This document shows positions 892 to 62,486 of a stretch of DNA of 64,000 nt, piece after piece. Position 1 is the stretch's first letter. Each line of letters opens with the position of its first letter. A model generated the notes under the pieces. The model did not search any database. It saw only the letters and a list, made by a program, of their open reading frames with translations, and was not told where the DNA came from. The stretch is from IMG/VR virus record IMGVR_UViG_3300023242_000006, positions 5,476-69,475 of that record. The stretch is one strand, 5' to 3'. This stretch comes from a virus. A program made the translations under genes and the position numbers.

Positions 892-1227
892 AGTTTTATT
901 CTTTTATTTTTGGTACTGAATCACCTACTGAACCCCATACTGAATCACTTACTGAAACCCATACTGAATCCCATACTGAATTATATACTGAATTACTTAC
1001 TGAATTATATACTGAATTACTTATTGAACTGTTTACTTTATCTTTTATCGATTTACCTAGCTTCATTGTTTTATTATTTTATATTTGGTACTGAATTCCT
1101 TACTGATTTCAGTACTGCATCACTTACTGAATACCATACTAAATTCCTTACTAAATTCCTTACTGAATTCCAGACTGAATCCCTTACTGAATTATATAGT
1201 GAATCCCTTACTTTATTTTTTATCGAT

Positions 1228-1515
1228 TTACCTAGTTTCATTGTTTATTTTTGACATTAAATCCCTTACTGAATTATATACTGAATCCCATACTGAATTC
1301 CTTACTTTATCACTTACTGAATTACTTACTGATTTAATCACTGAATCCCTTAATGAATACCTTACTGAACCCCTTACTGAATACCTTACTGAATACCTTA
1401 CTGAATACCATACTGAATCACTTACAGAACCATGTACTGAATTATTTACTGAATTACTTACTGAATACCTTACTGAATCCTTTACTTTATCTTTTATTGA
1501 TTTACCTATTATCAT
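1228..1515 (-). CDS. Repeat-array mini-protein paralog
   Basis: Begins MIIGKSIKDKVKDSV. It is longer because it has more 12-nt repeats. Confidence 0.5.
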   Translation of the reverse strand: MIIGKSIKDKVKDSVRYSVSNSVNNSVHGSVSDSVWYSVRYSVRYSVRGSVRYSLRDSVIKSVSNSVSDKVRNSVWDSVYNSVRDLMSKINNETR

Positions 1516-1730
1516 AGTTTTATATTTGGCGTTGAATTCCTTACTGATTTCATTATTAAATGATTCACTAAATGGTTTACCGAATAGATTATTGAATTAC
1601 TTACTGAATCTCTTACTGAATTCCTTACTGAATTCCTTACTGAATCCCTTACTGAATTCCTTACTGAATTCCTTACTGAACCCCTTATTGAACCCCTTAC
1701 TTTATCTTTTATTGGTTTACCTAGTTTCAT
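1512..1730 (-). CDS. Repeat-array mini-protein paralog
   Basis: Begins MKLGKPIKDKVRGS, with (SVRN)n repeats. Confidence 0.5.
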   Translation of the reverse strand: MKLGKPIKDKVRGSIRGSVRNSVRNSVRDSVRNSVRNSVRDSVSNSIIYSVNHLVNHLIMKSVRNSTPNIKL

Positions 1731-1766
1731 TGTTTATTTTTGGCATTAAATCCGTTACTGAATCCC

Positions 1767-1979
1767 TTACTGAATCCCTTCTGAATTACTTACTGAACAC
1801 CATACTGAATTACTTACTGAACTCCATACTGAATCACTTACTAAATCACGTACTGAATCCCATACTGAATTACTTACAGAATCATATACTGAATCATTTA
1901 CTTTATTACTTACTGAATACCTTGCTGAACCAAATACTGAATCCCTTACTTTATCTTTTATTGATTTACCTACTATCAT
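1767..1979 (-). CDS. Repeat-array mini-protein paralog
   Basis: Begins MIVGKSIKDKVRDSV. Confidence 0.5.
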   Translation of the reverse strand: MIVGKSIKDKVRDSVFGSARYSVSNKVNDSVYDSVSNSVWDSVRDLVSDSVWSSVSNSVWCSVSNSEGIQ

Positions 1980-1983
1980 AGTT

Positions 1984-2178
1984 TTATTCTTTTATTTTTG
2001 GTATTGAATTACTTACTGAACGACTTACTGAATTACTTACTGGAGTCCATACTGAATTCCTTACTGAATTCCTTACTGGAGTCCATACTGAATTCCTTAC
2101 TGAATACCATACTGAATCACTTACTGAATCTCTTACTGAACCCCTTACTTTATCTTTTATTGATTTACCTAGTATCAT
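1984..2178 (-). CDS. Repeat-array mini-protein paralog
   Basis: Begins MILGKSIKDKVRGSV and ends IPKIKE. Confidence 0.5.
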   Translation of the reverse strand: MILGKSIKDKVRGSVRDSVSDSVWYSVRNSVWTPVRNSVRNSVWTPVSNSVSRSVSNSIPKIKE

Positions 2179-2187
2179 TGTTTTAAT

Positions 2188-2232
2188 AAAAAAGTGCAGA
2201 AGGTTATTATTTTTCCCTCTGCACCTAATTTA
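2188..2232 (-). terminator. Rho-independent terminator (stem GGTGCAGAGGG/CCTTCTGCAC followed by a T-run on the minus strand)
   Basis: The inverted repeat gtgcagaagg...ccctctgcac reads on the minus strand as a hairpin followed by TTTTTTATT. It lies directly downstream of gene 2234..2479. Confidence 0.6.
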
Positions 2233-2233
2233 A

Positions 2234-2479
2234 TTAATCTTTTGACTTTTCGTAAACTGCTTTCAAAGGATTGTAAACAACTTGTGTTGTGATTAAACAA
2301 CTTTTCTTTTGTTCTAAAGTTGTGTGATTTTCTGTTGTTAAAACAGACTCACCCTCAACTAAGAACGTTTCATTTACTGCATCAATATCTACTACTTTTT
2401 TAGCGTTTTTGATGAAGTGACCACTTGTACTACTTGGTGCTACATTTACACCCACATTTAATTTTTCCATACTACTCAT
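2234..2479 (-). CDS. Hypothetical protein (unique insert inside the repeat array)
   Basis: Non-repetitive 81-aa ORF between array units, with its own terminator. Confidence 0.5.
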   Translation of the reverse strand: MSSMEKLNVGVNVAPSSTSGHFIKNAKKVVDIDAVNETFLVEGESVLTTENHTTLEQKKSCLITTQVVYNPLKAVYEKSKD

Positions 2480-2762
2480 ATTTATTGTTTAAAATTTTAC
2501 TGAATTACTTATTTTATTTTTAGTATTGAATTACTTACTGAATCCCTTACTTTATCTTTTATTTGTTTACCTAGTTTCATTGTTTATTTACCTAGTATCA
2601 TTATTTTATTTTTGGTATTGAATCATGTACTGAATCATATACTAAATCCCTTACTGAATCACTTACTGAACCCCATACTGAATCATATACTGAATCACTT
2701 ACTGAATTATATACTGAATCCCATACTGAATTACTTACTTTATCTTTTATCGATTTACCGAT
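2480..2762. repeat. Degenerate distal units of the same CTTACTGAAT array
   Basis: Junction motifs recur near 2560, 2590 and 2745 without an intact mini-gene ORF. Confidence 0.7.
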
Positions 2763-2763
2763 A

Positions 2764-3915
2764 TTAAAATTCATAAGTCATTAATTTGAAGTAATCGTTA
2801 CCCGATAAACTAGAGTAACGTTGAAGTTCATCATTACTAAATTCACCATTTTCTAATTTATAGGTAATATCATCATCAAATATAGTTGAAAATTTCTCAC
2901 CTTGTCTACTAATACTAACAATATTATTTTTTAAAATAGTAGGTACTCTGTATAAACTAGCGATAGCATCTTTAGCGGAGTCATAACTTGGCTCAACACC
3001 TAAAAAAAACATTCTATCTGTTGATGGGCAATAACACCTTACATATGCAATATTTACGTCATTTATTTGACCCTTAAATAGTGTGTAAACACCAATTCTG
3101 TTAGACCTAGTTGTACCTTCCAAATATTCATTTTTAGTATCATTCACAAATGAATCAACCTGTTTTAGATTATCTCGCATGAAGTCAAAAACAGCTTCTG
3201 TGCCGTCTCTACTTTCAATGTAAAGTAAAATCATTGACTTGGTTTCTTCGTTCTCTTCCTTAATAAAATCACTAAATGTATACTTTCTATTTTTCAACTT
3301 TAAAAATAAATCAGCATCAACATTTAAACCATTGATAAAATAGCAACCAGTACCATCATTAAATTCAATCGCAAAATCTTCTGTGTTGTGAGGCAATAAA
3401 TTTTCAGAAAGAATGTATTTAGGTGGTTGTACAGCGAAAACAACATTTTCAAATTCAAACGTTTCAAAAACATTTGACTCAATTAATGATTGGTACATAT
3501 TGAACTTTTCATCATTTAACACACCAATCTGTGTGAAATAATCATAAAACGAAATCCAACCAAAATTTGACCACCCAATGTATGAACTTTTCAGCTCTTT
3601 GTTTTCATCCATTTTTTTTAAAAAATCGGATTTTAATTTACTATTTTTATATTTTTCAAAAATAGTTGGGTATTCTGATACATCCATATTAAAATCCTTA
3701 AACATAGTTATTTTAATAATAGCATCAATTATCGAATCACAATAGATAACTTGTGGATTAGGTAAACTAACAAGGTTATTATATAACCAACTTATACCTG
3801 TTTCAAATTTTGATTTGTCAATACCCATTGAGCAATCATTGTAGGCTTTATTTATCCATTTGTCTCTTACTACCAATGTTAACGCCTCTTCTTGTTTTGT
3901 TAATTCTTCTTTCAT
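2764..3915 (-). CDS. Hypothetical protein (383 aa)
   Basis: Long ORF with no recognisable motif. Confidence 0.55.
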   Translation of the reverse strand: MKEELTKQEEALTLVVRDKWINKAYNDCSMGIDKSKFETGISWLYNNLVSLPNPQVIYCDSIIDAIIKITMFKDFNMDVSEYPTIFEKYKNSKLKSDFLKKMDENKELKSSYIGWSNFGWISFYDYFTQIGVLNDEKFNMYQSLIESNVFETFEFENVVFAVQPPKYILSENLLPHNTEDFAIEFNDGTGCYFINGLNVDADLFLKLKNRKYTFSDFIKEENEETKSMILLYIESRDGTEAVFDFMRDNLKQVDSFVNDTKNEYLEGTTRSNRIGVYTLFKGQINDVNIAYVRCYCPSTDRMFFLGVEPSYDSAKDAIASLYRVPTILKNNIVSISRQGEKFSTIFDDDITYKLENGEFSNDELQRYSSLSGNDYFKLMTYEF

Positions 3916-5440: not shown

Positions 5441-5671
5441 TTATTTTGTGTTGCATTTACAGTGTCCCGCATGTGTCATTGAAATTCCATCTCTAACTTT
5501 GGAATAGATATAAGTATGACCTTTGTAGTCAAACTCTTGTATGTCTTCAGCATGTGAAAAAGCACCATTGCTAATTCTTACAGTACCTTTTGTTGGCGTT
5601 TTTTGTTCTACATGAGTTGTTGTTTCACCACACCCAGTTAACCCTAATAGAATGAACAGAACCCAAACCAA
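5441..5671 (-). CDS. Putative lipoprotein
   Basis: Signal peptide with lipobox LGLTGC. Confidence 0.45.
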   Translation of the reverse strand: MVWVLFILLGLTGCGETTTHVEQKTPTKGTVRISNGAFSHAEDIQEFDYKGHTYIYSKVRDGISMTHAGHCKCNTK

Positions 5672-23518: not shown

Positions 23519-23769
23519 ATTTTGTGTATTTCATATTATTTCTTTTTTGCTTTTGTTTTTACAATCTCAACCATTTGTCTTTCAAATGTTGTAATTGCCG
23601 ATACAATCTTACGACAATCTTCGTCTGACAAAGATTCAAACCCACCAATCATGTCTTTGATACCTTTAGTGGACAAATTGACATAGATATTCTTCAAATA
23701 TTTAATCAGTACAATATTAATCTGATTAAATACTTAATTAATACAAAGGTACATATATATCAATTAAAT

Positions 23770-23908: not shown

Positions 23909-24538
23909 TTAACTTTTTTTTATTATTGGGTTAATAACCTGTTCAATTATTTTGATTGCAGATGTTATTTTTCGATAGTCTTCGTTGTTTAAAGTATCAT
24001 TTTTTGTAAAATAATCTTTAATAAGACGATTATTAAGGTTAACATAGATATTCTTCAGGGTATTACCCTTTAACATAGCACGTTGAACTGGTGATGCAAC
24101 ACCACCTTGTGCTTCAATGTCCTTGGTAATCTTTTCTTTACCATATCTTCTAGGAATCAAAGCTTCTTTCTTCTCGGACACTTTGTCCTTGACAATGACC
24201 TTGATAGGTTCCACAACTTGCTCAACTACTTCTTCAACTTCAATCACCTCTGCGACCTCAATAGGTTCAGTTTGTGGTGTTGGTGGTGACTGCATTAAAC
24301 GTTGATACTTATTGATTAAATCTTTACTTGTAAGAATAAGGTTTTCAAACAACCCAACCAACAATTCTTTGGTTGAGTTATTTAACTTGCCCTCTTTTTG
24401 TAGAGAGTATAACATAGTAAACGGTATTTTAATTTCATCTGTAAAGATTTCTTTTAAATCGTTGTTCTGCTCAATAATTCCTAGAATAACTAATTCATTG
24501 TACTCTAAATCTGCTATTTTTTCAATTGTTTTTGTCAT
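23909..24538 (-). CDS. Hypothetical protein with acidic PEV-rich linker
   Basis: 209-aa ORF. Its C-terminal about 45 aa is duplicated as a fragment at 23560-23700. Confidence 0.5.
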   Translation of the reverse strand: MTKTIEKIADLEYNELVILGIIEQNNDLKEIFTDEIKIPFTMLYSLQKEGKLNNSTKELLVGLFENLILTSKDLINKYQRLMQSPPTPQTEPIEVAEVIEVEEVVEQVVEPIKVIVKDKVSEKKEALIPRRYGKEKITKDIEAQGGVASPVQRAMLKGNTLKNIYVNLNNRLIKDYFTKNDTLNNEDYRKITSAIKIIEQVINPIIKKS

Positions 24539-24550
24539 AACTTATATTAT

Positions 24551-24928
24551 TTATATGATTGCTCTTTCGTTAATTTCTTCAACAACTTCAGCGTTTTTTT
24601 TAATACATTTTTCTAAATTCAATCTTAAACTACCAATTTGGTTCTTCATCATATCGTGTGTTGCACGAATAATAATCATTTCTAACTTATTACTTCTACG
24701 TCTTTTTAAGATTTCTTTGCCTTGTTTAAGCAATCTATGGGATTCAGAAATATGTTTAACATCAGTACCTTCTACCAGATGATACCAACCAGATAACTCT
24801 CGGTCAATGTTACCTTGTTTTTCACTCACATCTTTATAGTTTGATTCAATTTTGTCAAATTGATTAATGAAATCAACTACTGATTGTAACATCTCATTGT
24901 CTTTGGCAACTAATTTTAATTTCTCCAT
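24551..24928 (-). CDS. Hypothetical protein
   Basis: 125-aa ORF. Its 5' end and promoter are duplicated at 28165-28320. Confidence 0.5.
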   Translation of the reverse strand: MEKLKLVAKDNEMLQSVVDFINQFDKIESNYKDVSEKQGNIDRELSGWYHLVEGTDVKHISESHRLLKQGKEILKRRRSNKLEMIIIRATHDMMKNQIGSLRLNLEKCIKKNAEVVEEINERAII

Positions 24929-25136
24929 TTTTGGTTTGTGTTAATTATTATAATGCAAAGGTATATATAATAATTTAACCCACCAAATATTTTTATGAAT
25001 TTCTTTAATTTTTGGTGCAAAAAGTGTTTTCCTAAAACTTCGTATGTTACCATGCCACTAATTTTATTTGACAAAAAAAAAAACGAAACTTCAAAGAGAA
25101 ATCTCGTTTTTTTTTTGAAAAAAGTTTAGTTTAATT

Positions 25137-28100
25137 CTAATCTTTAATTATTTTTATTGTCCTTGTTTTTAATTTAACAAAATATACACCCTTAGTTAAA
25201 TTACCAAAGTAAATAGTGTTACCATCTTGTTTTACCTTGATACTTCTACCCAAAACGTCATAAACTTTTACTCTTATATCGTTAGTTTCTAAGTAAAGAA
25301 CATCTCTAACGGGGTTAGGATAGGCGTAAAATAAGTCTTCTTTAACTTCCACCACTTTAAGAGGCTCTTGATAAACCAATTGAAATCTACCATTAAATTC
25401 GCCAACTTCTGATGTAAATGTATGGGGTAGTGAGTGTAATACTCCGTTATCTTTTACGTATACATTTTGTATTCCTTGAATTGAATCTAGTGATATTGTA
25501 AAGGTTTCGGCAACTGCTGTAAAATAACCTAACCCAACAACATCATTAACGTCAAACTCACCTCTCGACTGTATTTTATTTAAGTTATCAGAGTCATCTA
25601 AAGAGTAAAATTTAATAGCTTTTCTTGGAGATGAATCAATGTAGTCCCACCCCTTCTGATAGTTTTTAGTTGTTTCAGAGCTGTAACCTATAAGTTGTTG
25701 AGAAAATAACCCTAACTCTGTTGTTAAATTTAACCAAACCCTTTTAATTGAATCTTGAGATGTTCTAAAGAATACTACACTCGTCGTATTATCAATAACT
25801 TTATCCATAAAACTAGGTCTGAATATCAAATCATTTTCTGTCTGAGCCTCAACTAAGAAACCTTGCCCGCTACCAATCGCTGATGTTGGTATCTTACTAG
25901 TAAACGTTGCTGTAGTTCCTATTGTACCAGAAGTAGCCGTTCCACCTAATAAATTGTAATACGCATAATCCGAGGTAGAAAAATTATTAGCTTGTAGCCC
26001 TGGGTAAGTTGTTAAAAAACTCCCCGTATGTGTCCAATATGCTAATGTTCCGCTAATATTTGCTAAGTTTTCATTAATAAAATCGTTAGCTTTAATTGAC
26101 GATGAATAGGGGTTTCCCACTAAATTAAAATCATCAATATTACTAGAACTATTACCACTTAATTTTAATGGATATACAATCACCCCCGTATTCAAATCTC
26201 CCGTAAATGTCACTAGCTCGCCTCTTGGGTAGGGTGGTGAATTTGGTATTGATTTTATCATAGATGCATATCCCTTTCCCGCAACCATACTGTCTGTTTG
26301 GCTAGATAGAGTCCAAGCAAAGGGAGCTTCATCATCTTGACCATCGGGGTCATCAGATTGAAATACTCCGTTAAGATGCGTTTTAGTATCTAAAAAATTT
26401 TCCGTTATAAATTCAAATGTATAGTTATTTTGCCACGCCCCTAATGCTTGACTTATTGTTGTATTTACAGAGCTAGACAAATATGTATAGTCATATCTTT
26501 TCATTTGGGTAGTTCTTCTCTGAACAGAAATATTTCCATTTGAAGTTGATGAATCATTTATTGGTATTAATTTTCCACCCGATTCCACTATAAGACTTCC
26601 AAGATTCTCAATGTGGTTCTGAACAGTTACAAAATCACCCGATTTTACAACTAGACTCCCATTAACAGTTAAATTACAACAATCGAAGCTACCATTTATA
26701 GAAGTGTCATAATTACCATTTATTACAGCATTTCTAGTCTGAGAGGGGAAACCACCAACCCAAGAAGTTCCATTCCAAGTTGATGTTAAATTACAAGTAG
26801 CTAGTGTAATATTCTGATTTAATATATTATATCCATTAACATTATCCCACAAGCCAACATTAGCAAATTGAATTGAGTAACCAAGGTTATTTTCTAAATT
26901 ATTATCCGCTATATGTAATAACAACTCATAAGTGTCATTAGGCAAATCATTAGGTATTGTAATTGTAAATGAGTTCGTTCCCTTGTTAAGTTCTCTAATA
27001 TCAAAATTAATTAAGCGTTTAGTATAAACAGTTCCTCTTTTAAAGACTAAATATAATTTCTTTTCGTATAAAATATTAGCGTACCCAACATTATCTACGT
27101 TTAAGGTAAGTTGATTACCAATAATACTACTTGAGCGAAGTACAAGCCTATACCCAAGGTTTTTAATAATGGTTTCATAGTGGTTAGAAGCAATCCAATT
27201 ATTCCAAGTTGGAATATGGTAGTCTCTATTTAAAGTTGTAAAATTAAGATTATTCATCTCAGTAATAGCGTTAGAACCACTTGTTCTAGGAGGATTAGAC
27301 CCGTTAGTTTCACCCGTCATTGGTAAATAGCGAGAAGTATTAGATATGAACGTGTAGTCGGACGAACCCACAGGATTAGTAAATTGACCGCTAACACTAT
27401 AAGTCCCCATATCTGCATAATAATTTAAAAAAGCATCGTTATAGAAACCAATTCTATCCCCTCCAAAATTAGTAGGTACAGAATTACCATACATTATTCT
27501 CTTAGCATTAGCATATCTAAGTTGTAGTGGTATGTCAATATGAAAGTTTGCTAACATTGAATCGACAACTTCCTTTCTATTAGCCCATTGCACGTTTGAT
27601 ATAGTACCCGCATGCCCAAATTCGGTAGAGCTTGTATAATACCATTCACCCCAAGTTCCTATAAAACCCGCTTGAATTGACATTACAACATCTTTATTTA
27701 AATTTACAACATTTGACAATTGAGAGATGTGGCTTAGTATTTGAGACTTAGCGGGTTGTTGTAAATTAGTGCCACTATAACAATTTGAATCACAATCATT
27801 AGTATAAGCAAATCTTATAATAACCTTTAATCCAGCATTGCGAATTCTGTCAAAATCTGTTTGCATATTGGTAATATAAGTTGATGTCAAAGCACCACTT
27901 GGTAAAATAAAATATCTGTATACGACAGTGACTCTATCGGTGGATGTGCGCCAATTAGTCAAAGTACTTTGAGATAGTTGATTATAGGAGAAAGAGGTGG
28001 CGGGGGAAAGTAAAGAGCCTGATATATTGATAGAATATTTTTGTAACCCCCTTTCAGGGTTTTCTATTATTGCAGTACTTTCGGTGTAATTTATGGTTTG

Positions 28101-28295
28101 GGATACCGCTACAAAATTGATGAATAATAACACCAAATATATTAAGTTTTTGCGTTTAACATTGATACCTTCTACTACATGATACCAACCAGATAACTCT
28201 CGGTCAACGTTATCTTCCTTTTCAGTCACATCTTTATAGTGTGATTCAATTTTGTCAAATTGATTAATGAAATCAACTAATTTTAATTTTTTCAT
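25137..28295 (-). CDS. Large secreted protein with T9SS (Por) C-terminal sorting domain
   Basis: C-terminus FYAYPNPVRDVLYLE...VKVYDVLGRSIKV....GVYFVKLKT matches the Bacteroidetes T9SS CTD pattern. The N-terminal 45 aa duplicate the N-terminus of gene 24551..24928 and are followed by a signal-peptide-like LIYLVLLFINFVAVSQ. Confidence 0.7.
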   Translation of the reverse strand: MKKLKLVDFINQFDKIESHYKDVTEKEDNVDRELSGWYHVVEGINVKRKNLIYLVLLFINFVAVSQTINYTESTAIIENPERGLQKYSINISGSLLSPATSFSYNQLSQSTLTNWRTSTDRVTVVYRYFILPSGALTSTYITNMQTDFDRIRNAGLKVIIRFAYTNDCDSNCYSGTNLQQPAKSQILSHISQLSNVVNLNKDVVMSIQAGFIGTWGEWYYTSSTEFGHAGTISNVQWANRKEVVDSMLANFHIDIPLQLRYANAKRIMYGNSVPTNFGGDRIGFYNDAFLNYYADMGTYSVSGQFTNPVGSSDYTFISNTSRYLPMTGETNGSNPPRTSGSNAITEMNNLNFTTLNRDYHIPTWNNWIASNHYETIIKNLGYRLVLRSSSIIGNQLTLNVDNVGYANILYEKKLYLVFKRGTVYTKRLINFDIRELNKGTNSFTITIPNDLPNDTYELLLHIADNNLENNLGYSIQFANVGLWDNVNGYNILNQNITLATCNLTSTWNGTSWVGGFPSQTRNAVINGNYDTSINGSFDCCNLTVNGSLVVKSGDFVTVQNHIENLGSLIVESGGKLIPINDSSTSNGNISVQRRTTQMKRYDYTYLSSSVNTTISQALGAWQNNYTFEFITENFLDTKTHLNGVFQSDDPDGQDDEAPFAWTLSSQTDSMVAGKGYASMIKSIPNSPPYPRGELVTFTGDLNTGVIVYPLKLSGNSSSNIDDFNLVGNPYSSSIKANDFINENLANISGTLAYWTHTGSFLTTYPGLQANNFSTSDYAYYNLLGGTATSGTIGTTATFTSKIPTSAIGSGQGFLVEAQTENDLIFRPSFMDKVIDNTTSVVFFRTSQDSIKRVWLNLTTELGLFSQQLIGYSSETTKNYQKGWDYIDSSPRKAIKFYSLDDSDNLNKIQSRGEFDVNDVVGLGYFTAVAETFTISLDSIQGIQNVYVKDNGVLHSLPHTFTSEVGEFNGRFQLVYQEPLKVVEVKEDLFYAYPNPVRDVLYLETNDIRVKVYDVLGRSIKVKQDGNTIYFGNLTKGVYFVKLKTRTIKIIKD

Positions 28296-28449
28296 TTTTG
28301 GTTTGTGTTAATTATTTTTATTAATTCATTGGGATTATTAAATTATTTGTATTACCTTTGTGTAACTTTCATAAAACCTGTGGTCTTACAACCACATATA
28401 TAAAGTCATGCACACTATACTCAATATAGTCTTCGAGTTTAGGTCTATA

Positions 28450-28839
28450 TTATTTAAAAGCTACTGGGTTATCTACAACTTTACCCATGGCGTTCGCTTG
28501 TTTTACTGACAAGTGTCTGACCTTGCCATCTGCATCTGGATTACCAGACACTGCTTTACCAATTGCTGACCTGTCGGTTGCGTTGTCCGCACTACCTACA
28601 CCCGCAGCATCCATTACTTGAGATAACTTTAAAAGTTTACCATCGCCTTGCGTTGCGTTTTTAATCTTTTTTGTTAACGTTTGAACTTTTTTCTTTTCGT
28701 CTTGGTTCAACTCAGTGAATTTACCCTCAACATCTTCTTTTTCAGTGTCTTCTCCACCACCTTCTTTGTTCGCTTCTTTTATTTTACTAAGTAAAGATTC
28801 TCTAAGCATGTCTTTTATAAATGATTTTTTCATATCCAA
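28450..28839 (-). CDS. Hypothetical protein
   Basis: ORF of 129 aa. Confidence 0.45.
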   Translation of the reverse strand: MDMKKSFIKDMLRESLLSKIKEANKEGGGEDTEKEDVEGKFTELNQDEKKKVQTLTKKIKNATQGDGKLLKLSQVMDAAGVGSADNATDRSAIGKAVSGNPDADGKVRHLSVKQANAMGKVVDNPVAFK

Positions 28840-29210: not shown

Positions 29211-29504
29211 TTAGTTTAATTTTTTTTCAAAGTCTTTTTCTATTTGTACCATAACCACTTCTTTAAATGCTTGGTTTATTATTTTAGAATCAACACCAAA
29301 AATTTTACATAACTGTATTTCTACATCCCAAAGATAAGTATTTTTATCTGATTCTATTTCTTTGATACTAAAGTCATGGGCCAAAGGAAAACTTTTTCCT
29401 TTGGCCCTATCAGCATATATTCTGTAAACAACATAATGCTTGTCAATATATTTTTTGACAAGCATCACATTAAAAATATCTTCTTTACTATTAATCAAGT
29501 TCAT
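29211..29504 (-). CDS. Hypothetical protein
   Basis: ORF of 97 aa. Confidence 0.4.
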   Translation of the reverse strand: MNLINSKEDIFNVMLVKKYIDKHYVVYRIYADRAKGKSFPLAHDFSIKEIESDKNTYLWDVEIQLCKIFGVDSKIINQAFKEVVMVQIEKDFEKKLN

Positions 29505-30369
29505 TGTAAGCTAAAAGAACTCTAGGGTTTCTTCTCAATACGTTAAGTGATTTTTCACGTACTTGACGTACTCTTTCACGAGTTATCCCCATTCTATCAC
29601 CAACTTCATTAAGAGTCATAGGATTATTACCATTCAACCCAAATAAACATTCCATGATTTCCCTATCTCTTAAAGATAAAACACCAAGAATTGAGTTTAT
29701 TTCATCAATTAAATTTGAATCATTCAATATATGGTCAGTTGCTTTAAATGAATTATCAGCAATCAATTCACCTAACGCTGAACCACCATCATCGTTACCA
29801 ACTTGACGGTCCAATGAATCCATATTATATGTGCTTAATACATCTAAAAACAGGAAATCTTCATCGTTCATTTCGTTACCAAACTCTTCCATTACTTCTT
29901 GAACATCTACTTTACGACCTTTTATTTGTTCAAGTTCAGCAATCTTTTTATTTAACTTAGATAAGCTATTCAATTTATTTGCTGGAATACGAACCATCGT
30001 ACCATTCTTTGCGATGTGTTCTAGAATTATTTTTCTGACCCACCATACAGCATATGAAATAAATTTATAACCCATACTTGGTGTGAATTTCTCAGCAGCA
30101 ATAACTAATCCGATATTACCTTCATTTACTAAGTCTTCCAATGCTATACCATTACTAACATATTGTTTAGCAACTGACACAACAAAACGTAAATTTTTTT
30201 GAACTAATTCATTTATGGCTTTTTCATCACCTAAACTTGCTCTTTCACTAACAGCAAATTCTTCTTCTGGGGATGAGAACAAAGGAACACTCCCAATTTC
30301 TTTTAAATATTGTTTGAAAGATTCATTCTCTCTATTGGTAAGTTTGTACGAAATTTTTAATTGCTTCAT
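29491..30369 (-). CDS. RNA polymerase sigma-70 family factor (regions 2-4)
   Basis: Region 4 HTH LNEVGDRMGITRERVRQVREKSLNVLR. Region 2 FISYAVWWVRKII. About 290 aa. Confidence 0.8.
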   Translation of the reverse strand: MKQLKISYKLTNRENESFKQYLKEIGSVPLFSSPEEEFAVSERASLGDEKAINELVQKNLRFVVSVAKQYVSNGIALEDLVNEGNIGLVIAAEKFTPSMGYKFISYAVWWVRKIILEHIAKNGTMVRIPANKLNSLSKLNKKIAELEQIKGRKVDVQEVMEEFGNEMNDEDFLFLDVLSTYNMDSLDRQVGNDDGGSALGELIADNSFKATDHILNDSNLIDEINSILGVLSLRDREIMECLFGLNGNNPMTLNEVGDRMGITRERVRQVREKSLNVLRRNPRVLLAYNELD

Positions 30370-30433: not shown

Positions 30434-30877
30434 TTAATCAGTGTTTCTTTCTAAGTCTCTTTTTAAGTCTTTTTCTTTGATGGAGTGTTTTTTATCATAT
30501 AAGTGTTTACCTTTACCCAAACCAATGTTAACCTTGATAAACCCAGTGTTTGATACTATAATTTCAATAGGTACAATAGTCAACCCCTTTTGCGATAAAC
30601 TTTTATCTAACTTAAAGATTTCTTTTTTCTTCATAAGAAGCTTTCTATCTCTTAGCGGTAAATGATTGTTATGTTTACCACCTTCTTTGTGTTCAGCAAC
30701 GTGCATACCTTTAATAAACAACTCACCATTGGAGATGTAACAATAAGCCTCAACAATAGAAGCCTTACCATTCCTAATAGACTTAACCTCAGACCCAACC
30801 AAGACGATTCCCGATACAAAAGTTTCGATAATCTCATACTCAAATCTCGCTTTGCGATTAGTTAAAATAACTTTCAT
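30434..30877 (-). CDS. smpB: SsrA-binding protein SmpB
   Basis: MKVILTNRKARFEYEIIETFVSGIVLVGSEVKSIRNGKASIVEAYCYI is the canonical SmpB N-terminus. Start trimmed so that the promoter motif at 30886-30895 lies upstream. Confidence 0.8.
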   Translation of the reverse strand: MKVILTNRKARFEYEIIETFVSGIVLVGSEVKSIRNGKASIVEAYCYISNGELFIKGMHVAEHKEGGKHNNHLPLRDRKLLMKKKEIFKLDKSLSQKGLTIVPIEIIVSNTGFIKVNIGLGKGKHLYDKKHSIKEKDLKRDLERNTD

Positions 30878-30954
30878 AATATACAAAGGTACTAAATAAT
30901 TTCTAATTATACAATTTATTTACTTATTTAATTTTTATAACTATATTTATATTT

Positions 30955-31159: not shown

Positions 31160-31318
31160 ATGAAAAAAGACAAATTATCACCAAAAGAGAGAAAACAAAC
31201 CATAAGTATCCAGATTCCTAATGAATTAATAATTCATTTAGATGTAATTAATAATAAGAGTAAATTCTTCGAATGGTTATTAATTGAACATTTTAACACT
31301 TTAAAAAATGGAAAATAA
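31160..31318 (+). CDS. Ribbon-helix-helix-like small protein; overlaps the start of the downstream endonuclease gene
   Basis: ..KQTISIQIPNELIIHLD.. Its stop overlaps the ATG at 31308. Confidence 0.4.
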   Translation: MKKDKLSPKERKQTISIQIPNELIIHLDVINNKSKFFEWLLIEHFNTLKNGK

Positions 31319-32258
31319 AACTGAAAATTTTATTTCAAAAGCTAAATTAATACATGGTGATAAATATGATTATTCAAAAGTTAACTATATTAATAAAAGA
31401 ACTAACGTTAAAATAATTTGTTCTGAACATGGTGTTTTTGAACAATTAGTACATAACCATTTAAAAGGTAATGGTTGTATTAAATGTTCTGGAAAAGGTT
31501 TAACTAATGAAGAATTTATTAATAAATGTAATATAGTTCATAAAAATAAATTTAATTATTCATTGGTAGATTATAAAAATTGTTATGAAAAAATTAAAAT
31601 AATTTGCCCAATACATGATAAATTTGAACAAACACCAAGTTCTCATATTAGTGGTGTTGGTTGTTGGAAGTGTTTTAATGAGGATAGAACCACATCAAAT
31701 AATGAGTTCATATTAAAAGCCGAAAAAGTTCATAGCGATAAATATAATTATTCTAAAATTATTTATTTAAATAGTAAAGTTAATATCACAATTATTTGTC
31801 CAATACATGGTGACTTTGAACAAACACCTAATATGCATTTAAAAGGTTGTGGTTGCCGTAAATGTGGTTATATAACGGTGTCTAAAAAAGCAATTAATAA
31901 TTCACATAGTTTTTCACTATCAAGTTGGAAAAATATTATATCTAAAAACATAAAGGCTAAACCAATGTTATATATTATTAAATGTTATAATGATACTGAA
32001 GAATTCATTAAAATAGGTATAACAATAAACAACTTAAAAGGAAGATACCCTAGTAATAAACATATGCCTTATAAATATGATATAATATTAACACATGAAG
32101 CTGAACCAGAATTAGTGTTTAACATAGAAAAAGCGTTACACAGGTATTTTAAAAAAATTAAATACACCCCGACTATAAAATTCCATGGTATGGGTGAGTG
32201 TTATTATATAAAAGATAAACCAGAAATTTTAAACTATTGTAATAAACAATTAAATTAA
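31308..32258 (+). CDS. Putative homing endonuclease: three zinc-ribbon repeats plus a C-terminal T5orf172 (GIY-YIG-like) domain
   Basis: The repeat [10 protein letters not shown]..IICxxHGxFEQxPxxHLKGxGCxKC occurs three times. C-terminus [18 protein letters not shown].......YDIIL.HEA....[11 protein letters not shown]. It sits on the plus strand, opposite to all its neighbours. Confidence 0.6.
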
Positions 32259-35123: not shown

Positions 35124-35225
35124 TGGTACATCGTATAGGAATCGAACCTATGTTACCGCAAGCGATTGGTACTTAATCTTCCGATGTGCTCTCATTTCGG
35201 CATTCTACCATTAAACTAACGATAT
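35124..35225 (-). tRNA. tRNA-like element A (encodes CCA; good T-arm; about 98 nt if the distal 5' acceptor strand is used, or a 60-nt minimal form)
   Basis: 3' end ..ATAGGTTCGATTCCTAT-ACGATGT-ACCA. Complementary 5' strands are ACATCGG at 35181-35187 or ATATCGT at 35219-35225. Confidence 0.45.
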
Positions 35226-35408: not shown

Positions 35409-35505
35409 ACTATCACTATGTCGCTCGGCAAAGTTAAACGTGATAGAAAGGATTATAACCGTCTGAAAGTTTGCCGACCTTCATGTTGCTATTCCCCAAT
35501 TTTGT

Positions 35506-35603
35506 GCGAGAGGGTGGACTCGAACCACCGACACCCAGTCCCTAGTTGTTCCCTTGTACTTCGGGCTAAAGACCTTAGCGTTTACCACTTCGCCACTCTC
35601 GCA
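35506..35603 (-). tRNA. tRNA-like element C (98 nt): perfect 7-bp acceptor stem GCGAGAG/CTCTCGC, 3-bp D-stem, good T-arm, but no canonical anticodon stem
   Basis: GCGAGAG-TG-GCGAAGTGGTAAACGC-...48 nt...-GGTGGTTCGAGTCCACC-CTCTCGC-A. Confidence 0.45.
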
Positions 35604-58421: not shown

Positions 58422-58955
58422 TTATTGTTTTAAAGTTTCTCTTACTCGCATAATAGCTTCACCTAACCAGTTTTTACCTTGCCATTTGCTCTTATCTTCA
58501 ATATTTCGGTGTTCAACACCCATTCCAATCCCCCAGATTTTATCGTAAGGGCTTGCTTCAACAATTTCTCTATCTTCAGTTGCTAACAATGATGTTTTGA
58601 AACTTATATTCTGTGTAAACTTGGCCAAGTTACCTTGATAAACAAATTCTCTACATACTCCATTCCATCTATTTGTATCGAAATTTTTAACACTACGACC
58701 CAAAGCTTTTTGTTCTTTTGGGTTTGTAGTATTCATAATAGTTTCATATACTTCCATATCTTTGAAATATAAAGCTTTTTGGGCCATCATGTATTGTTCA
58801 CAACTAGTGTAAGTGATTCCAGCAATGACAAACTTTGATGGATGCCATTGACTATAAATCCCATTCCAAAAGAATACAAACTCGTCTGTTATTGTAACGT
58901 CTTTTGTTCCCATAATTAAACTTTTGCTCGTTCTCTCACTTCTTCGAATGTCCAT
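58422..58955 (-). CDS. NADAR (YbiA/DUF1768) domain protein
   Basis: FFW...SQW.PS.F.I.G..YTSCEQYMMAQKALYF.D......I.....P.EQKALGR.V.NFD...W......V...GN.AKF.QN......LL.T....IVEASPYDKIWGIG. Confidence 0.7.
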   Translation of the reverse strand: MDIRRSERTSKSLIMGTKDVTITDEFVFFWNGIYSQWHPSKFVIAGITYTSCEQYMMAQKALYFKDMEVYETIMNTTNPKEQKALGRSVKNFDTNRWNGVCREFVYQGNLAKFTQNISFKTSLLATEDREIVEASPYDKIWGIGMGVEHRNIEDKSKWQGKNWLGEAIMRVRETLKQ

Positions 58956-59937
58956 TCTTTAGTGATTATACCGTTTCTGAACACTTCTACCAACTCATCT
59001 GTAACATCGTTGAACTCAGAATCCATTGAAGTAACTGTTCTAAACGTACCATCGTCATTCTTAACCAATTTAAGTAACCCTTGTTTTGATTTCTTGAATG
59101 ATTTTGTGATGTTACCATTAGCATCCATCTCAGTTGGAGATTTGATGATATTCTTTTCTTCACCATTGACAATAGCATAACATGCTTTGGTTGCAAAGTT
59201 TTGCGTATCACGGTTGATATCGGCTTGTAATAATTTGCCACCCATACCTAAAGCTAAGTTTTCTGGTGATATTTTTTGTTCCTCTAACAATGCATAGATT
59301 TCTTTGATTGAATCTAGATTAACACCATCACCTTGAATCACACGAACTTGTGGTGGTAACACTTTATAACCCTTATCGTTTACTGTGTAACCGAATTTGT
59401 CGAATAATATAGTGAAAATTTCTTTCAATGTCATTAACACGTCACCAGAATCTGGACGGATAACTAGTTGATTTCCTGGTTCTGATGGGCGAGATAGTAC
59501 TAAGTCTCTCAATTCAGTTCCCCAATACTCAGAACATGCACGAAAGATATTGTATGAATCAGATACACACGCAACTAACCCAGTAGGGAATGTTGTAAGT
59601 ACTCGTTTCATCATTTCCAATTCACCTTCTTCACCTTTAAGTGTCATGATAGAGTGTTCAGTTGCTGGGATAGATAACCCATAAACCGTTTCTGTATTGT
59701 AGTAATCTCTGATGTATTTAGATGCCATGATTGTGTCAGACCCTCTAAAGTTTACCAAGTGAGCAGAGCCACCGATACCAGCTGATTGTACAGACGATAC
59801 ACCACGGAAACCGAAGTCATTCAACACGTAATCAACCAGAAACTCTCTTAACCCAGTATCATATGATGTGTTTTTTTGAAAACTACTATCTACTATTTTA
59901 CGAACTTCTCTCGAAAGTGTAGCAACCGTAATCGGGT
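58916..59937 (-). CDS. nadV: Nicotinamide phosphoribosyltransferase NadV/NAMPT, exon 2
   Basis: ...YPITVATLSREVRKI...VLNDFGFRGVSSVQSAGIGGSAHLVNFRGSDT... The frame is open upstream of the track ATG and reads back to a splice-like boundary. Confidence 0.7.
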
Positions 59938-61415: not shown

Positions 61416-62414
61416 TTATTCACCAGTGTAAGTTACATTATCAATTCTTTCAACTAATCTTTCACCAATATTTGGTATAAGTTTTTCATCGTAAACTTTG
61501 TTAACCAAAGCCAACATCATTTCACGGTGTTCTGGCATTACTTTGGTTCTAACCGTATCAAAGTTACTGAACTCTCTAATTGGAATCCATTTAACATCTG
61601 CGATATCATCACTAGCTTTTGCGTAACCCATATTTTTGCGACCCAAGAATAACGTAGTCATTATCCCAGATTCTTCTTTGGCATATCTCCAATCTTTTAC
61701 TCTATGACTTAAGATATATTTTAAGTCGCTGATAACACAATTACCACCAGTTTCTTCACGAAACTCTCTCAAAGCTGCTTTTTCATAGCTTTCATCTGTC
61801 GGGTCAACAAATCCACCAACGAATCTCCAATACTTCTCGTTAGGTTTTCTACCCATAAGAATCTCACCTTCATCGTTGTATGCACAGATATCAACTGTTG
61901 GATAAGAGACTGGTCTTTGATTAAATGCTGAGTAGATAACACCAGACCTAAAATCAGTAGAGTCAAGAGTTTCTTTAGCGACATCTGCTCTAATGTTTGT
62001 AGCGTTATGGTTAAAGCTAGCTTCTAATTCAATAACTTGAAATTTGCCTTTGTAATGAGGAATGAACGAATCACGGCTACCATAAATAACTGTTTTCTTT
62101 TCACCAAACGGCATAGAAATAGCTGAATCAATTTCTGAACTCCATTTTTCATCGTATCTTTGGTCCATTACTGGTAAAATCATTAAACTAGGAAACGATT
62201 TTTGAATCATAGCTTTACGACTAGCAAAATCCAAAGGGTTTTTCTTGGTGTTTTGTACTCTAGACACACCTAGGATAAGTACAGTTTTTTTATGATTTGA
62301 AAGGACGTGGTTAATCAAGTCAATATGTCCTTTATGTAATCGGTTTGTTTGAAATCGCCCTATAACAACCCCAACTTCAAAATCCGTTGGTTCTATGTTT
62401 TTTTTAATGTCCAT
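61416..62414 (-). CDS. Bifunctional NMN adenylyltransferase / Nudix hydrolase (NatV/NadM-Nudix-like)
   Basis: N-terminus GRFQ..HKGH (nucleotidyltransferase H-x-G-H). C-terminal Nudix box GGFVDPTDESYEKAALREFREETGG. Start trimmed to MDIKK, downstream of the promoter motif at 62438. Confidence 0.75.
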   Translation of the reverse strand: MDIKKNIEPTDFEVGVVIGRFQTNRLHKGHIDLINHVLSNHKKTVLILGVSRVQNTKKNPLDFASRKAMIQKSFPSLMILPVMDQRYDEKWSSEIDSAISMPFGEKKTVIYGSRDSFIPHYKGKFQVIELEASFNHNATNIRADVAKETLDSTDFRSGVIYSAFNQRPVSYPTVDICAYNDEGEILMGRKPNEKYWRFVGGFVDPTDESYEKAALREFREETGGNCVISDLKYILSHRVKDWRYAKEESGIMTTLFLGRKNMGYAKASDDIADVKWIPIREFSNFDTVRTKVMPEHREMMLALVNKVYDEKLIPNIGERLVERIDNVTYTGE

Positions 62415-62486
62415 ATTTGATTTTATTTTTATAGTACAAAGGTACAAAAAAAAATGCAGATAAAACAAATTATCTAAAAGTTTTTT

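Follow-up and report, generated by a model that had tools for sequence, protein, structure and literature searches.

Why would a phage carry a gene for a large protein that ends in a sorting signal of the Bacteroidota type IX secretion system (T9SS), and why does that gene open with the first codons of its neighbor? We addressed these questions in a 64,000-nt stretch of the virus record IMGVR_UViG_3300023242_000006 (positions 5,476 to 69,475; the whole stretch is called the window), where a 1052-aa open reading frame (ORF) on the minus strand lies upstream of a small gene that we call gene X. A 3.4-kb cassette (~25006-28321) is inserted here between a sigma-factor operon and early gene X. The reading that we prefer, and to which we give a probability of roughly 0.6, is that this captured, phage-derived cassette encodes a surface-displayed or secreted glycanase exported via the T9SS of the host.

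Judged by its gene content, the window is part of a large phage: PHROG matches include a nuclease (E = 9e-146), a DNA transfer protein (E = 8e-151), a sigma factor, an HNH endonuclease, a nicotinamide phosphoribosyltransferase (NAMPT), and an NMNAT/Nudix protein, and tRNAs and an SmpB gene are also present. The host would be a T9SS-bearing member of the Bacteroidota, because the window contains 17 Bacteroidota-type promoters and the nearest bacterial homologues belong to Aquimarina, Flavobacterium, other Flavobacteriales, and Saprospiraceae. Neither a megablast search with the 22- to 31-kb region nor a tblastn search with the fusion protein matched any of 50,697 GenBank phage records.

Anatomy of the encoded protein

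The ORF listing bears out the length of 1052 residues given in a first-pass annotation of this DNA, which had also called the protein giant; large is the better word. Pfam and NCBIfam scans with curated or gathering cutoffs recover three Pfam domains in the ORF (DUF4874, DUF4832, and Por_Secre_tail). From the N terminus, the protein consists of a peptide derived from gene X (the copied segment is denoted X'), a Sec signal peptide, a glycoside hydrolase (GH)-like head, a module resembling the gliding adhesins RemA and RemZ, and a T9SS type A C-terminal domain (CTD):

25137..28295 (-): fusion ORF, 1052 aa (ORF listing; Pfam and NCBIfam domains)
28155..28295 (-): X' segment, aa 1-47 of the fusion ORF (repeats, alignments, codon table)
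28101..28154 (-): Sec signal peptide core, RKNLIYLVLLFINFVAVS (aligned with the N-terminal signal peptides of homologues P0002-P0019)
26859..28061 (-): DUF4874 plus DUF4832 head, aa 79-479 (Pfam, fold model)
25326..26837 (-): RemA/RemZ-like module, aa 487-990, beta-rich (phmmer against PDB sequences)
25143..25322 (-): T9SS type A C-terminal sorting domain, aa 992-1051 (TIGR04183, PF18962, motifs)

The sorting domain had been proposed from the letters alone, and the check suggested with it, a search with TIGR04183, gives 41.3 bits against a cutoff of 23. Por_Secre_tail (PF18962) covers aa 992-1050 with 40 bits (cutoff, 27), and the translation contains the CTD motifs PNP and G-x-Y (KGVYF) and a lysine five residues before the end (K1048). 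The "T9SS type C" label, which NCBI attaches to bacterial homologues of the module, was considered and rejected for this protein, with NF033708 reaching 15 bits against a cutoff of 40; on those homologues the name "type C sorting signal" is due to the last 55 residues only.

The module matches no Pfam or NCBIfam family, yet phmmer searches of PDB sequences align it with RemZ (8gl8_D, E = 2e-49, aa 487-1019 against 557-1072) and RemA (8gl6_D, E = 6e-30, RemA 1085-1411). These matches are restricted to the C-terminal parts of the two adhesins; a lectin or long adhesin N-terminal region of the RemA/RemZ type is absent, and the only Pfam families ahead of the module are DUF4874 and DUF4832. RemA, the mobile lectin of gliding in Flavobacterium johnsoniae, has RemZ as a homologue; both are type A T9SS substrates bound by SprA/PorV, and RemZ was captured in the Extended Translocon (PMC10994853).

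The head contains DUF4874 (aa 79-262, 110.9 bits; cutoff, 30.1) and DUF4832 (aa 281-479, 135.4 bits; cutoff, 29.2) in that order. A full-length AlphaFold2 (AF2) model on an 18-sequence alignment gave a poor head (predicted local distance difference test score [pLDDT] of 71), and the head model was redone with 77 sequences. The new model has the barrel fold of clan GH-A, so that the head is predicted to combine a GH-A-type (beta/alpha)8 barrel with a beta-sandwich on its C-terminal side. E217 (after beta4) and E329 (at the end of beta7) are invariant in the 77 sequences, and their positions in the model make them a candidate catalytic pair. Bacterial homologues of the head (~545-aa proteins of Aquimarina and Flavobacterium consisting of head and CTD) are 49-54% identical to it, and the ORF layout around two of them (L022 and L034) reveals no obvious polysaccharide utilization locus or exopolysaccharide cluster. 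The sole functional hint in the literature is a link of DUF4832 genes to Gram-positive Pel loci. An earlier guess that the protein is a depolymerase or an adhesin fits these parts, which would join a GH-A-like TIM-barrel head to an adhesin-like module.

Directly after the copied segment comes a signal-peptide-like stretch (KRKNLIYLVLLFINFVAVS followed by Q; aa 47-66), also as first described, and at the aligned position every homologue has its true N-terminal signal peptide. Cleavage is predicted before Q66 (A-V-S, then Q), and the signal peptides of P0002-P0019 all end in S or A before a Q; Gln at +1 after cleavage fits the "Q-rule" of Bacteroidetes. The peptide is N-terminal in all homologues and internal in the window protein, where it starts at residue 47. 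The codons just past X' (CGC AAA AAC TTA ...) are its n- and h-regions, at the point where homologues start MKK or MKR; because these regions directly abut X', the donor's own ATG is gone, and the only ATG of the fusion ORF is supplied by X'. Speculatively, rare initiation at the ATC of codon 44 (I44) would place the signal peptide exactly at the N terminus (MNVKRKN...).

Insertion and the borrowed translation start

Homologues of gene X (P0122-P0131, 54-86% identical) occur in related phages, and five distinct loci (L005, L007, L008, L009, and L010) lack the fusion gene between X and its upstream neighbor, a 124-aa gene that we call o124. In these relatives the order is SmpB, sigma factor, two small genes, o124, 340 bp, X, and a 223/230-aa gene, followed farther on by 194 and 384, and the window is colinear with them apart from the insert. 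Because the five loci run uninterrupted from o124 through terminator and promoter to X, the window carries a 3.4-kb insertion, and the idea that the duplication marks an insertion is thereby confirmed. An IMG/VR search for loci related through gene X found nothing. The features of the locus outside the ORF are as follows:

28450..28839 (-): o129, which ends the sigma-factor operon and is homologous to the relatives' 124-aa gene (ORF listing, locus comparison)
28310..28444 (-): conserved intergenic segment B/C, 86% identical to L005 9783-9921 (alignment, blastn)
28296..28321 (-): duplicated 5' leader, AATAATTAACACAAACCAAAA, a copy of 24929-24954 (repeat and alignments)
25074..25116 (.): A/T-flanked hairpin, bidirectional and intrinsic-terminator-like, part of the insert (inverted repeat, sequence reading)
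25006..25073 (-): insert-specific 3' spacer, 68 nt (L005 homology picks up again at 25005)
24956..24987 (-): single-copy Bacteroidota-type promoter of gene X, TTTGG-N20-TACCTTTG (regular-expression scan)
24551..24928 (-): gene X, intact copy, 125 aa, function unknown (ORF listing; the repeat spans 24754-24954)

Both copies of the repeat were compared in an alignment with the corresponding stretch from three related phages, and blastn was used to place them on the nearest relative, L005. The ancestral layout would have been o124, a strong terminator, ~110 nt, segment B/C, promoter, leader, and X. The 5' part of the window locus runs from o129 through B/C (28444-28310) and leader plus X' (28321-28155) to the signal peptide and the rest of the ORF; the strong terminator and the ~110 nt that precede B/C in relatives are deleted. 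The 3' part consists of the A/T-flanked hairpin (25074-25116), the 68-nt unique spacer, the promoter (24987-24956), the leader, and X. The spacer has no counterpart in related phages, in other loci carrying the family, or elsewhere in the window, and the insert's 3' flank (25006-25136) and signal-peptide region, searched for a trace of the donor, are unmatched in those family-carrying loci.

The near-copy of the start of gene X reported upstream is real: it comprises two direct repeat blocks, 24754-24879 versus 28154-28279 (126 nt, 91%) and 24907-24954 versus 28274-28321 (48 nt, 92%), which a self-BLAST of the window places far beyond chance (E = 2.9e-47 and 1e-14). X' consists of gene X codons 1-7 and 19-58, an in-frame 33-nt deletion having removed codons 8-18 (AKDNEMLQSVV), a loss from the upstream copy that shifts the two blocks by 33 nt against each other. 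A coding stretch is thus duplicated as claimed, with a length of 47 codons instead of the 45 first counted. Codons 40 (AAC), 47 (GGT), 54 (GGT), and 57 (GTT) are common to X' and the window's own X and differ from those of all relatives, so that the copy must have been made in this phage lineage. Homology between X' and X stops at GTTAAAC, with both the repeat and the blastn match to L005 ending at 28154-28151, and X' is joined to the signal peptide in frame at an AAAC microhomology (28154-28157), from which we infer that illegitimate recombination produced the junction. A chimeric assembly is unlikely, because the duplicates differ by ~9%, with private substitutions in X', and the few bases shared at the junction (AAAC) are too short a microhomology to cause a mis-join.

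A duplication of the promoter, which the first-pass annotation had also proposed, did not occur. The -33/-7 promoter of gene X (24987-24956), conserved in L005, L007, and L010, lies outside the repeat; none is present upstream of the large ORF, and only ~26 nt of leader (28296-28321) were copied, the duplicated stretch beginning only ~2 bases downstream of the -7 box. These results come from a scan with a TTTG/TAnnTTTG regular expression in place of the sigma-70 consensus, which is the wrong model for Bacteroidota and was not enriched (30 found versus 23.4 +/- 4.8 in shuffles). The 17 TTTG-N20/21-TACCTTTG promoters are all on the minus strand; 14 lie within 4.6-25 kb, the other three are at ~43.8, 46.3, and 62.5 kb, and the interval from 25 to 41.6 kb contains no such motif. 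The promoter of gene X is the last of the 4.6- to 25-kb cluster, and the insert therefore sits exactly at the border of two transcription regimes.

Two hairpins frame the fusion gene. The one in the insert begins 21 nt past the stop codon and has 19-nt arms (89% complementary) and a 5-nt loop; a consensus terminator scan did not flag it, its stem having fewer than three G-C pairs. The other (28379-28396, minus strand; TGTGGTT..GACCACA and then GGTTTT) lies in segment B/C, is terminator-like in the terminator scan, and, in a comparison of four sequences, has a single compensatory change between G-C and A-U. It may serve as an attenuator or second terminator, or it may belong to a small RNA. Rfam detected no RNA family in the intergenic regions (the locus searched in E-value mode and the whole window in gathering mode), its only matches being tRNAs elsewhere.

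The buried signal peptide raises the question of whether the fusion is dead or dying, in which case the loss of the start codon would have left a protein that is unexported or unmade and a locus that is a neutral scar. The signal peptide sits behind 47 residues and no promoter is recognizable; the private changes in X' are mostly nonsynonymous (five against one synonymous, by codon table) and come with a deletion; 7 of 159 family-invariant residues are altered, slightly above most members (0-6); and the fusion is found on one contig only (the identical protein P0001 comes from a JGI contig). Yet the frame of 1052 codons (3.16 kb of DNA with 31% GC) has remained uninterrupted while the duplicated flank diverged by ~9%, an interval in which, by a rough estimate, ~6 stop-creating changes would be expected under neutrality. 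The deletion in X' is in frame, the candidate catalytic Glu pair, the CTD motifs, and the +1 Gln are intact, and selection for expression would favor just such a loss of the upstream terminator. We consider a dead fusion rather unlikely; the intact frame and the conservation of all but 7 of the 159 invariant residues suggest instead that the fusion gene is functional and under constraint, with X' apparently evolving like an unconstrained adaptor that needs only to stay in frame.

Several side observations concern the same neighborhood. The SmpB homologue (30434..30886, minus strand) lies beside a phage RpoD-like sigma factor (29491..30369, minus strand), a pairing kept in L003 and L005-L010, and no transfer-messenger RNA reaches the Rfam gathering score anywhere in the window. 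A second partial duplication is found 1 kb downstream, where a 53-aa ORF (23536..23697, minus strand) and the C terminus of a 209-aa gene (23909..24538; 24036-24204) both match the 3' end of a single 230-aa gene in L005 (10776-10944 and 10920-11094; 88% each); it looks as if an ancestral 230-aa gene had been split by a ~340-nt insertion.

A phage-resident family with exchangeable heads

The fusion protein has ~20 homologues of 987-1032 aa that are 41-62% identical to it over 94-95% of the query, the uncovered part being the X' extension. A first search placed the same ~1000-aa architecture on six independent phage contigs, and a seventh (L088) was found later:

L001: sheath gene nearby as phage marker
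L003: sigma factor, SmpB, and RNase R-like genes; distantly related to the window phage
L004: GH19 endolysin, HSP70, and Clp
L012: Gp23 capsid, gp13, and sheath
L013: SIR2, Clp, NADAR, and thioredoxin
L014: sheath
L088: homologue directly upstream of gp13, gp15, and sheath genes

All 10 inspected contigs that encode phage-clade homologues are phage contigs, and in five of them the gene has neck or sheath genes as neighbors. When one genome from each of 185,579 species was scanned for the pattern, 69 bacterial loci were recovered, none with the full 1000-aa architecture; these loci encode the head only or head plus CTD (~545 aa). The bacterial DUF4874/DUF4832 proteins thus share the signal peptide and T9SS CTD of the phage protein and lack its ~500-aa RemZ-like module. 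With the architecture on seven phage contigs and at none of the 69 loci, the gene does not look like an oddity, and it was probably not acquired recently from the host; because the architecture belongs to a phage-resident, mobile gene family, the donor was most likely another (uncultured) phage and not a host chromosome.

The genomic position of the family varies, from the late structural module in some phage loci to nonstructural regions in others, and this variation bears on what we regard as an unlikely reading, though the most serious of the alternatives: that the protein is a virion component (a fiber, whisker, or tail-associated depolymerase), its "signal peptide" and "CTD" being structural and the gene merely relocated in the window. 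In L012, L014, L001, and L088 the homologue lies in a T4-like late module, between large baseplate-sized genes and the gp13, gp15, and sheath genes; homologues in the late module often overlap the preceding gene's stop, a conserved module with swappable heads recalls receptor-binding proteins, and depolymerase heads are typical of tail spikes. Other evidence speaks for export. Apart from P0004 and P0005, whose called starts are truncated, every homologue that we read opens with a cleavable signal peptide of canonical form and a +1 Gln; the CTD scores above curated T9SS cutoffs, the module is homologous to exported bacterial adhesins, and virions assemble in the cytoplasm. The gene is among nonstructural genes in the window, L003, L013, L084, and L086, and a fold search of the BFVD viral models gave no confident tail-fiber match, its top hits being a protein from an uncultured marine phage that consists of the module only (E = 3e-29) and a viral-contig protein with DUF4832. 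The search also recovered several viral proteins that bear a sorting-domain annotation, and genes of this kind are therefore already present, unremarked, in public viral data.

A search with the module and CTD (aa 480-1052) separates a phage clade at 43-63% identity from bacterial proteins at no more than 35%. Within this clade the module follows the DUF4874/DUF4832 barrel, an NHL/SGL-type beta-propeller with He_PIG (P0163, 995 aa), an unannotated head of ~200 aa (P0136), or no head at all (P0144, P0159, and dozens of other 550- to 580-aa proteins consisting of signal peptide, module, and CTD). All five module-clade sequences that we read begin with a signal peptide, the called start of P0136 being truncated. 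By these alignments, the module appears to be a carrier with interchangeable heads in phages. Two further contigs carry members of the clade:

L084: module-clade phage contig with T4_Y16D and long runs of small genes
L086: module-clade phage contig with RecA, RNA ligase, and LAGLIDADG endonuclease; a DUF723 gene immediately flanks the module gene

The head-less versions invite a reading in which the RemZ-like module and CTD are the active parts and the head is secondary: by analogy with RemZ, the protein would occupy, or compete for, the SprA/PorV translocon or the gliding track, so that receptor adhesins are not exported and superinfection exclusion or gliding arrest follows. RemZ is a substrate stuck in the stalled translocon of F. 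johnsoniae (PMC10994853), and phage resistance in Flavobacterium maps to gliding and T9SS genes (PMC9804748). This reading is pure analogy, however, as RemZ stalls only upon deletion of the motor, and the head of the window protein is strongly conserved with intact candidate catalytic residues, which speaks for a role of the head; we hold this reading to be very unlikely, the least probable of the alternatives.

Homing endonuclease genes recur around the family. In the window, 3 kb upstream, an island of 22% GC holds an HNH gene (31308..32258, plus strand), LAGLIDADG and DUF723 genes closely flank the module gene of L086 (8057-9118 and 13007-13732), and the DUF723 gene of L001 (12175-13608) is 46% identical to the window HNH protein; such nearby genes could contribute to mobility of the cassette. 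L084, with its head-less module gene, also encodes an 841-aa TonB-dependent receptor (1016-3541, minus strand; Plug plus TonB_dep_Rec_b-barrel), which would be another host outer-membrane-type protein encoded by a phage. A second CTD or module gene was not found within the window.

Elsewhere in the window, ARAGORN predicts a 99-nt tRNA-like gene with a four-base anticodon (gccc) at 35504-35602 (minus strand), and Rfam finds tRNAs at 35505-35602 and 35127-35225 (minus strand), the latter missed by ARAGORN; both ~98-nt tRNAs may contain introns or long variable arms. Two genes (58916..59827 and 61416..62468, both minus strand) suggest salvage of nicotinamide adenine dinucleotide (NAD+), encoding a NAMPT (E = 5.5e-96), whose ORF covers only the C-terminal 300 positions of the PHROG profile, and a cytidylyltransferase-like/Nudix fusion typical of phage NMNAT-Nudix proteins.

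Proposed working and known systems

If the protein is an exported glycanase, its gene, donated by another phage, would be transcribed by read-through from the sigma operon, as expected from the absence of a recognizable insert promoter and the deletion of the sigma-operon terminator, and translated from the initiation region of gene X (its ATG). The X' peptide would be merely an adaptor, behind which the hydrophobic segment would still act as a Sec signal or signal anchor, cut before Q66; the type A CTD would route the protein through the host SprA/PorV type IX translocon, and the RemA/RemZ-like module would retain it on the cell surface, as in gliding adhesins. There the GH-A-type head would cleave a surface or matrix glycan of the infected cell. 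The likely gain for the phage would be removal of receptor or capsule, and with it less loss of progeny on infected cells and debris, exclusion of superinfecting phages, or easier escape from the matrix.

Several points weigh against this account. The identity of the host rests on inference, and the contig is a metagenome assembly. The TTTG/TAnnTTTG scan found no recognizable promoter for the fusion gene itself, and the conserved hairpin upstream of it (28379-28396) could terminate read-through. Because 47 residues stand before the signal peptide, the efficiency of export is uncertain. A literature search gave no enzymatic activity, substrate, solved structure, or function for DUF4874/DUF4832, and the role of the module is not known even in F. 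johnsoniae. Finally, five of the inspected phage loci have their family member within the late structural operon, near neck and sheath genes, as one would also expect of a virion protein.

A broader proposal can be made only tentatively, and we hold it to be unlikely. Large phages of gliding Bacteroidota may carry a phage-specific mobile family of "surface effectors," in which a Sec signal, a RemA/RemZ-like module, and a T9SS CTD would mount interchangeable heads (a GH-like barrel, an NHL/SGL beta-propeller, a ~200-aa head, or none) on the surface or gliding track of the infected cell, so that the host's own secretion and motility machine strips or masks receptors or jams the translocon; the window would then record the capture of one member by in-frame fusion to a resident translation start and loss of an upstream terminator.

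Fish-pathogenic Flavobacterium become phage resistant mainly through T9SS and gliding proteins, and the turnover of polysaccharides by marine and gut Bacteroidota is shaped by T9SS cargo. If the exported-glycanase reading is true, phages remodel the surface of infected cells before lysis, which bears on superinfection exclusion, loss of progeny to debris, and biofilm escape. Such genes would also be a natural source of T9SS-targetable enzymes and would open a first way to the function of DUF4874/DUF4832 and of the pre-CTD module of RemA/RemZ.

How does this locus compare with known systems? A T9SS tag on a phage protein had struck the first-pass annotation as odd, and it is not unprecedented: our literature search found phage-encoded T9SS cargo reported once only, in Cryophage, a 76-kb uncultured Bacteroidota phage from cryoconite in which three flexible genes (an endoglucanase, a GH39 protein, and a PA14 protein) carry a T9SS CTD (Bellas et al. 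2020, Nat Commun, PMC7468147). The authors termed this a unique occurrence and proposed hijacked secretion or superinfection exclusion (PMC7468147). Like the window protein, the Cryophage cargo has a type A sorting domain, glycoside-hydrolase-type heads, and a place in the flexible, recombining part of a pan-genome. It differs in phage and in head families (a comparison by description, not with the MT820023 sequence), and neither a RemA/RemZ-like module nor in-frame capture of a neighbor's start was reported for it. T9SS-tagged phage genes are rare in the literature and common in related uncultured phages.

RemA and RemZ themselves (Fjoh_0808 and Fjoh_0803; PDB 8gl6 and 8gl8) share with the window protein the ~500 aa before the CTD and a type A CTD recognized by SprA/PorV; the similarity is low, and the window protein is phage encoded, with a GH-like barrel in place of the lectin and the long N-terminal region of RemA. 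Phage morons, depolymerases, and receptor-destroying enzymes resemble the locus as accessory inserts between conserved genes that have their own terminator, are absent from close relatives, and carry a glycan-active-type head. The insert agrees with morons in presence and absence among relatives and in its terminator-like hairpin, but lacks the promoter and start codon of its own that a moron has. Compared with virion-borne or secreted depolymerases, the window protein borrows a neighbor's translation start and would, by analogy with bacterial cargo, be routed via the host secretion system and not by lysis release or on a tail. Against this background, what appears to be new is a phage-specific architecture that, by sequence and model, joins an uncharacterized GH-A-like family to a gliding-adhesin module; a module that seems to serve as a widespread carrier with exchangeable heads in large Bacteroidota phages; and a probable capture mechanism, documented by relatives in the ancestral state, in which a neighbor's translation start, and not its promoter, was borrowed.

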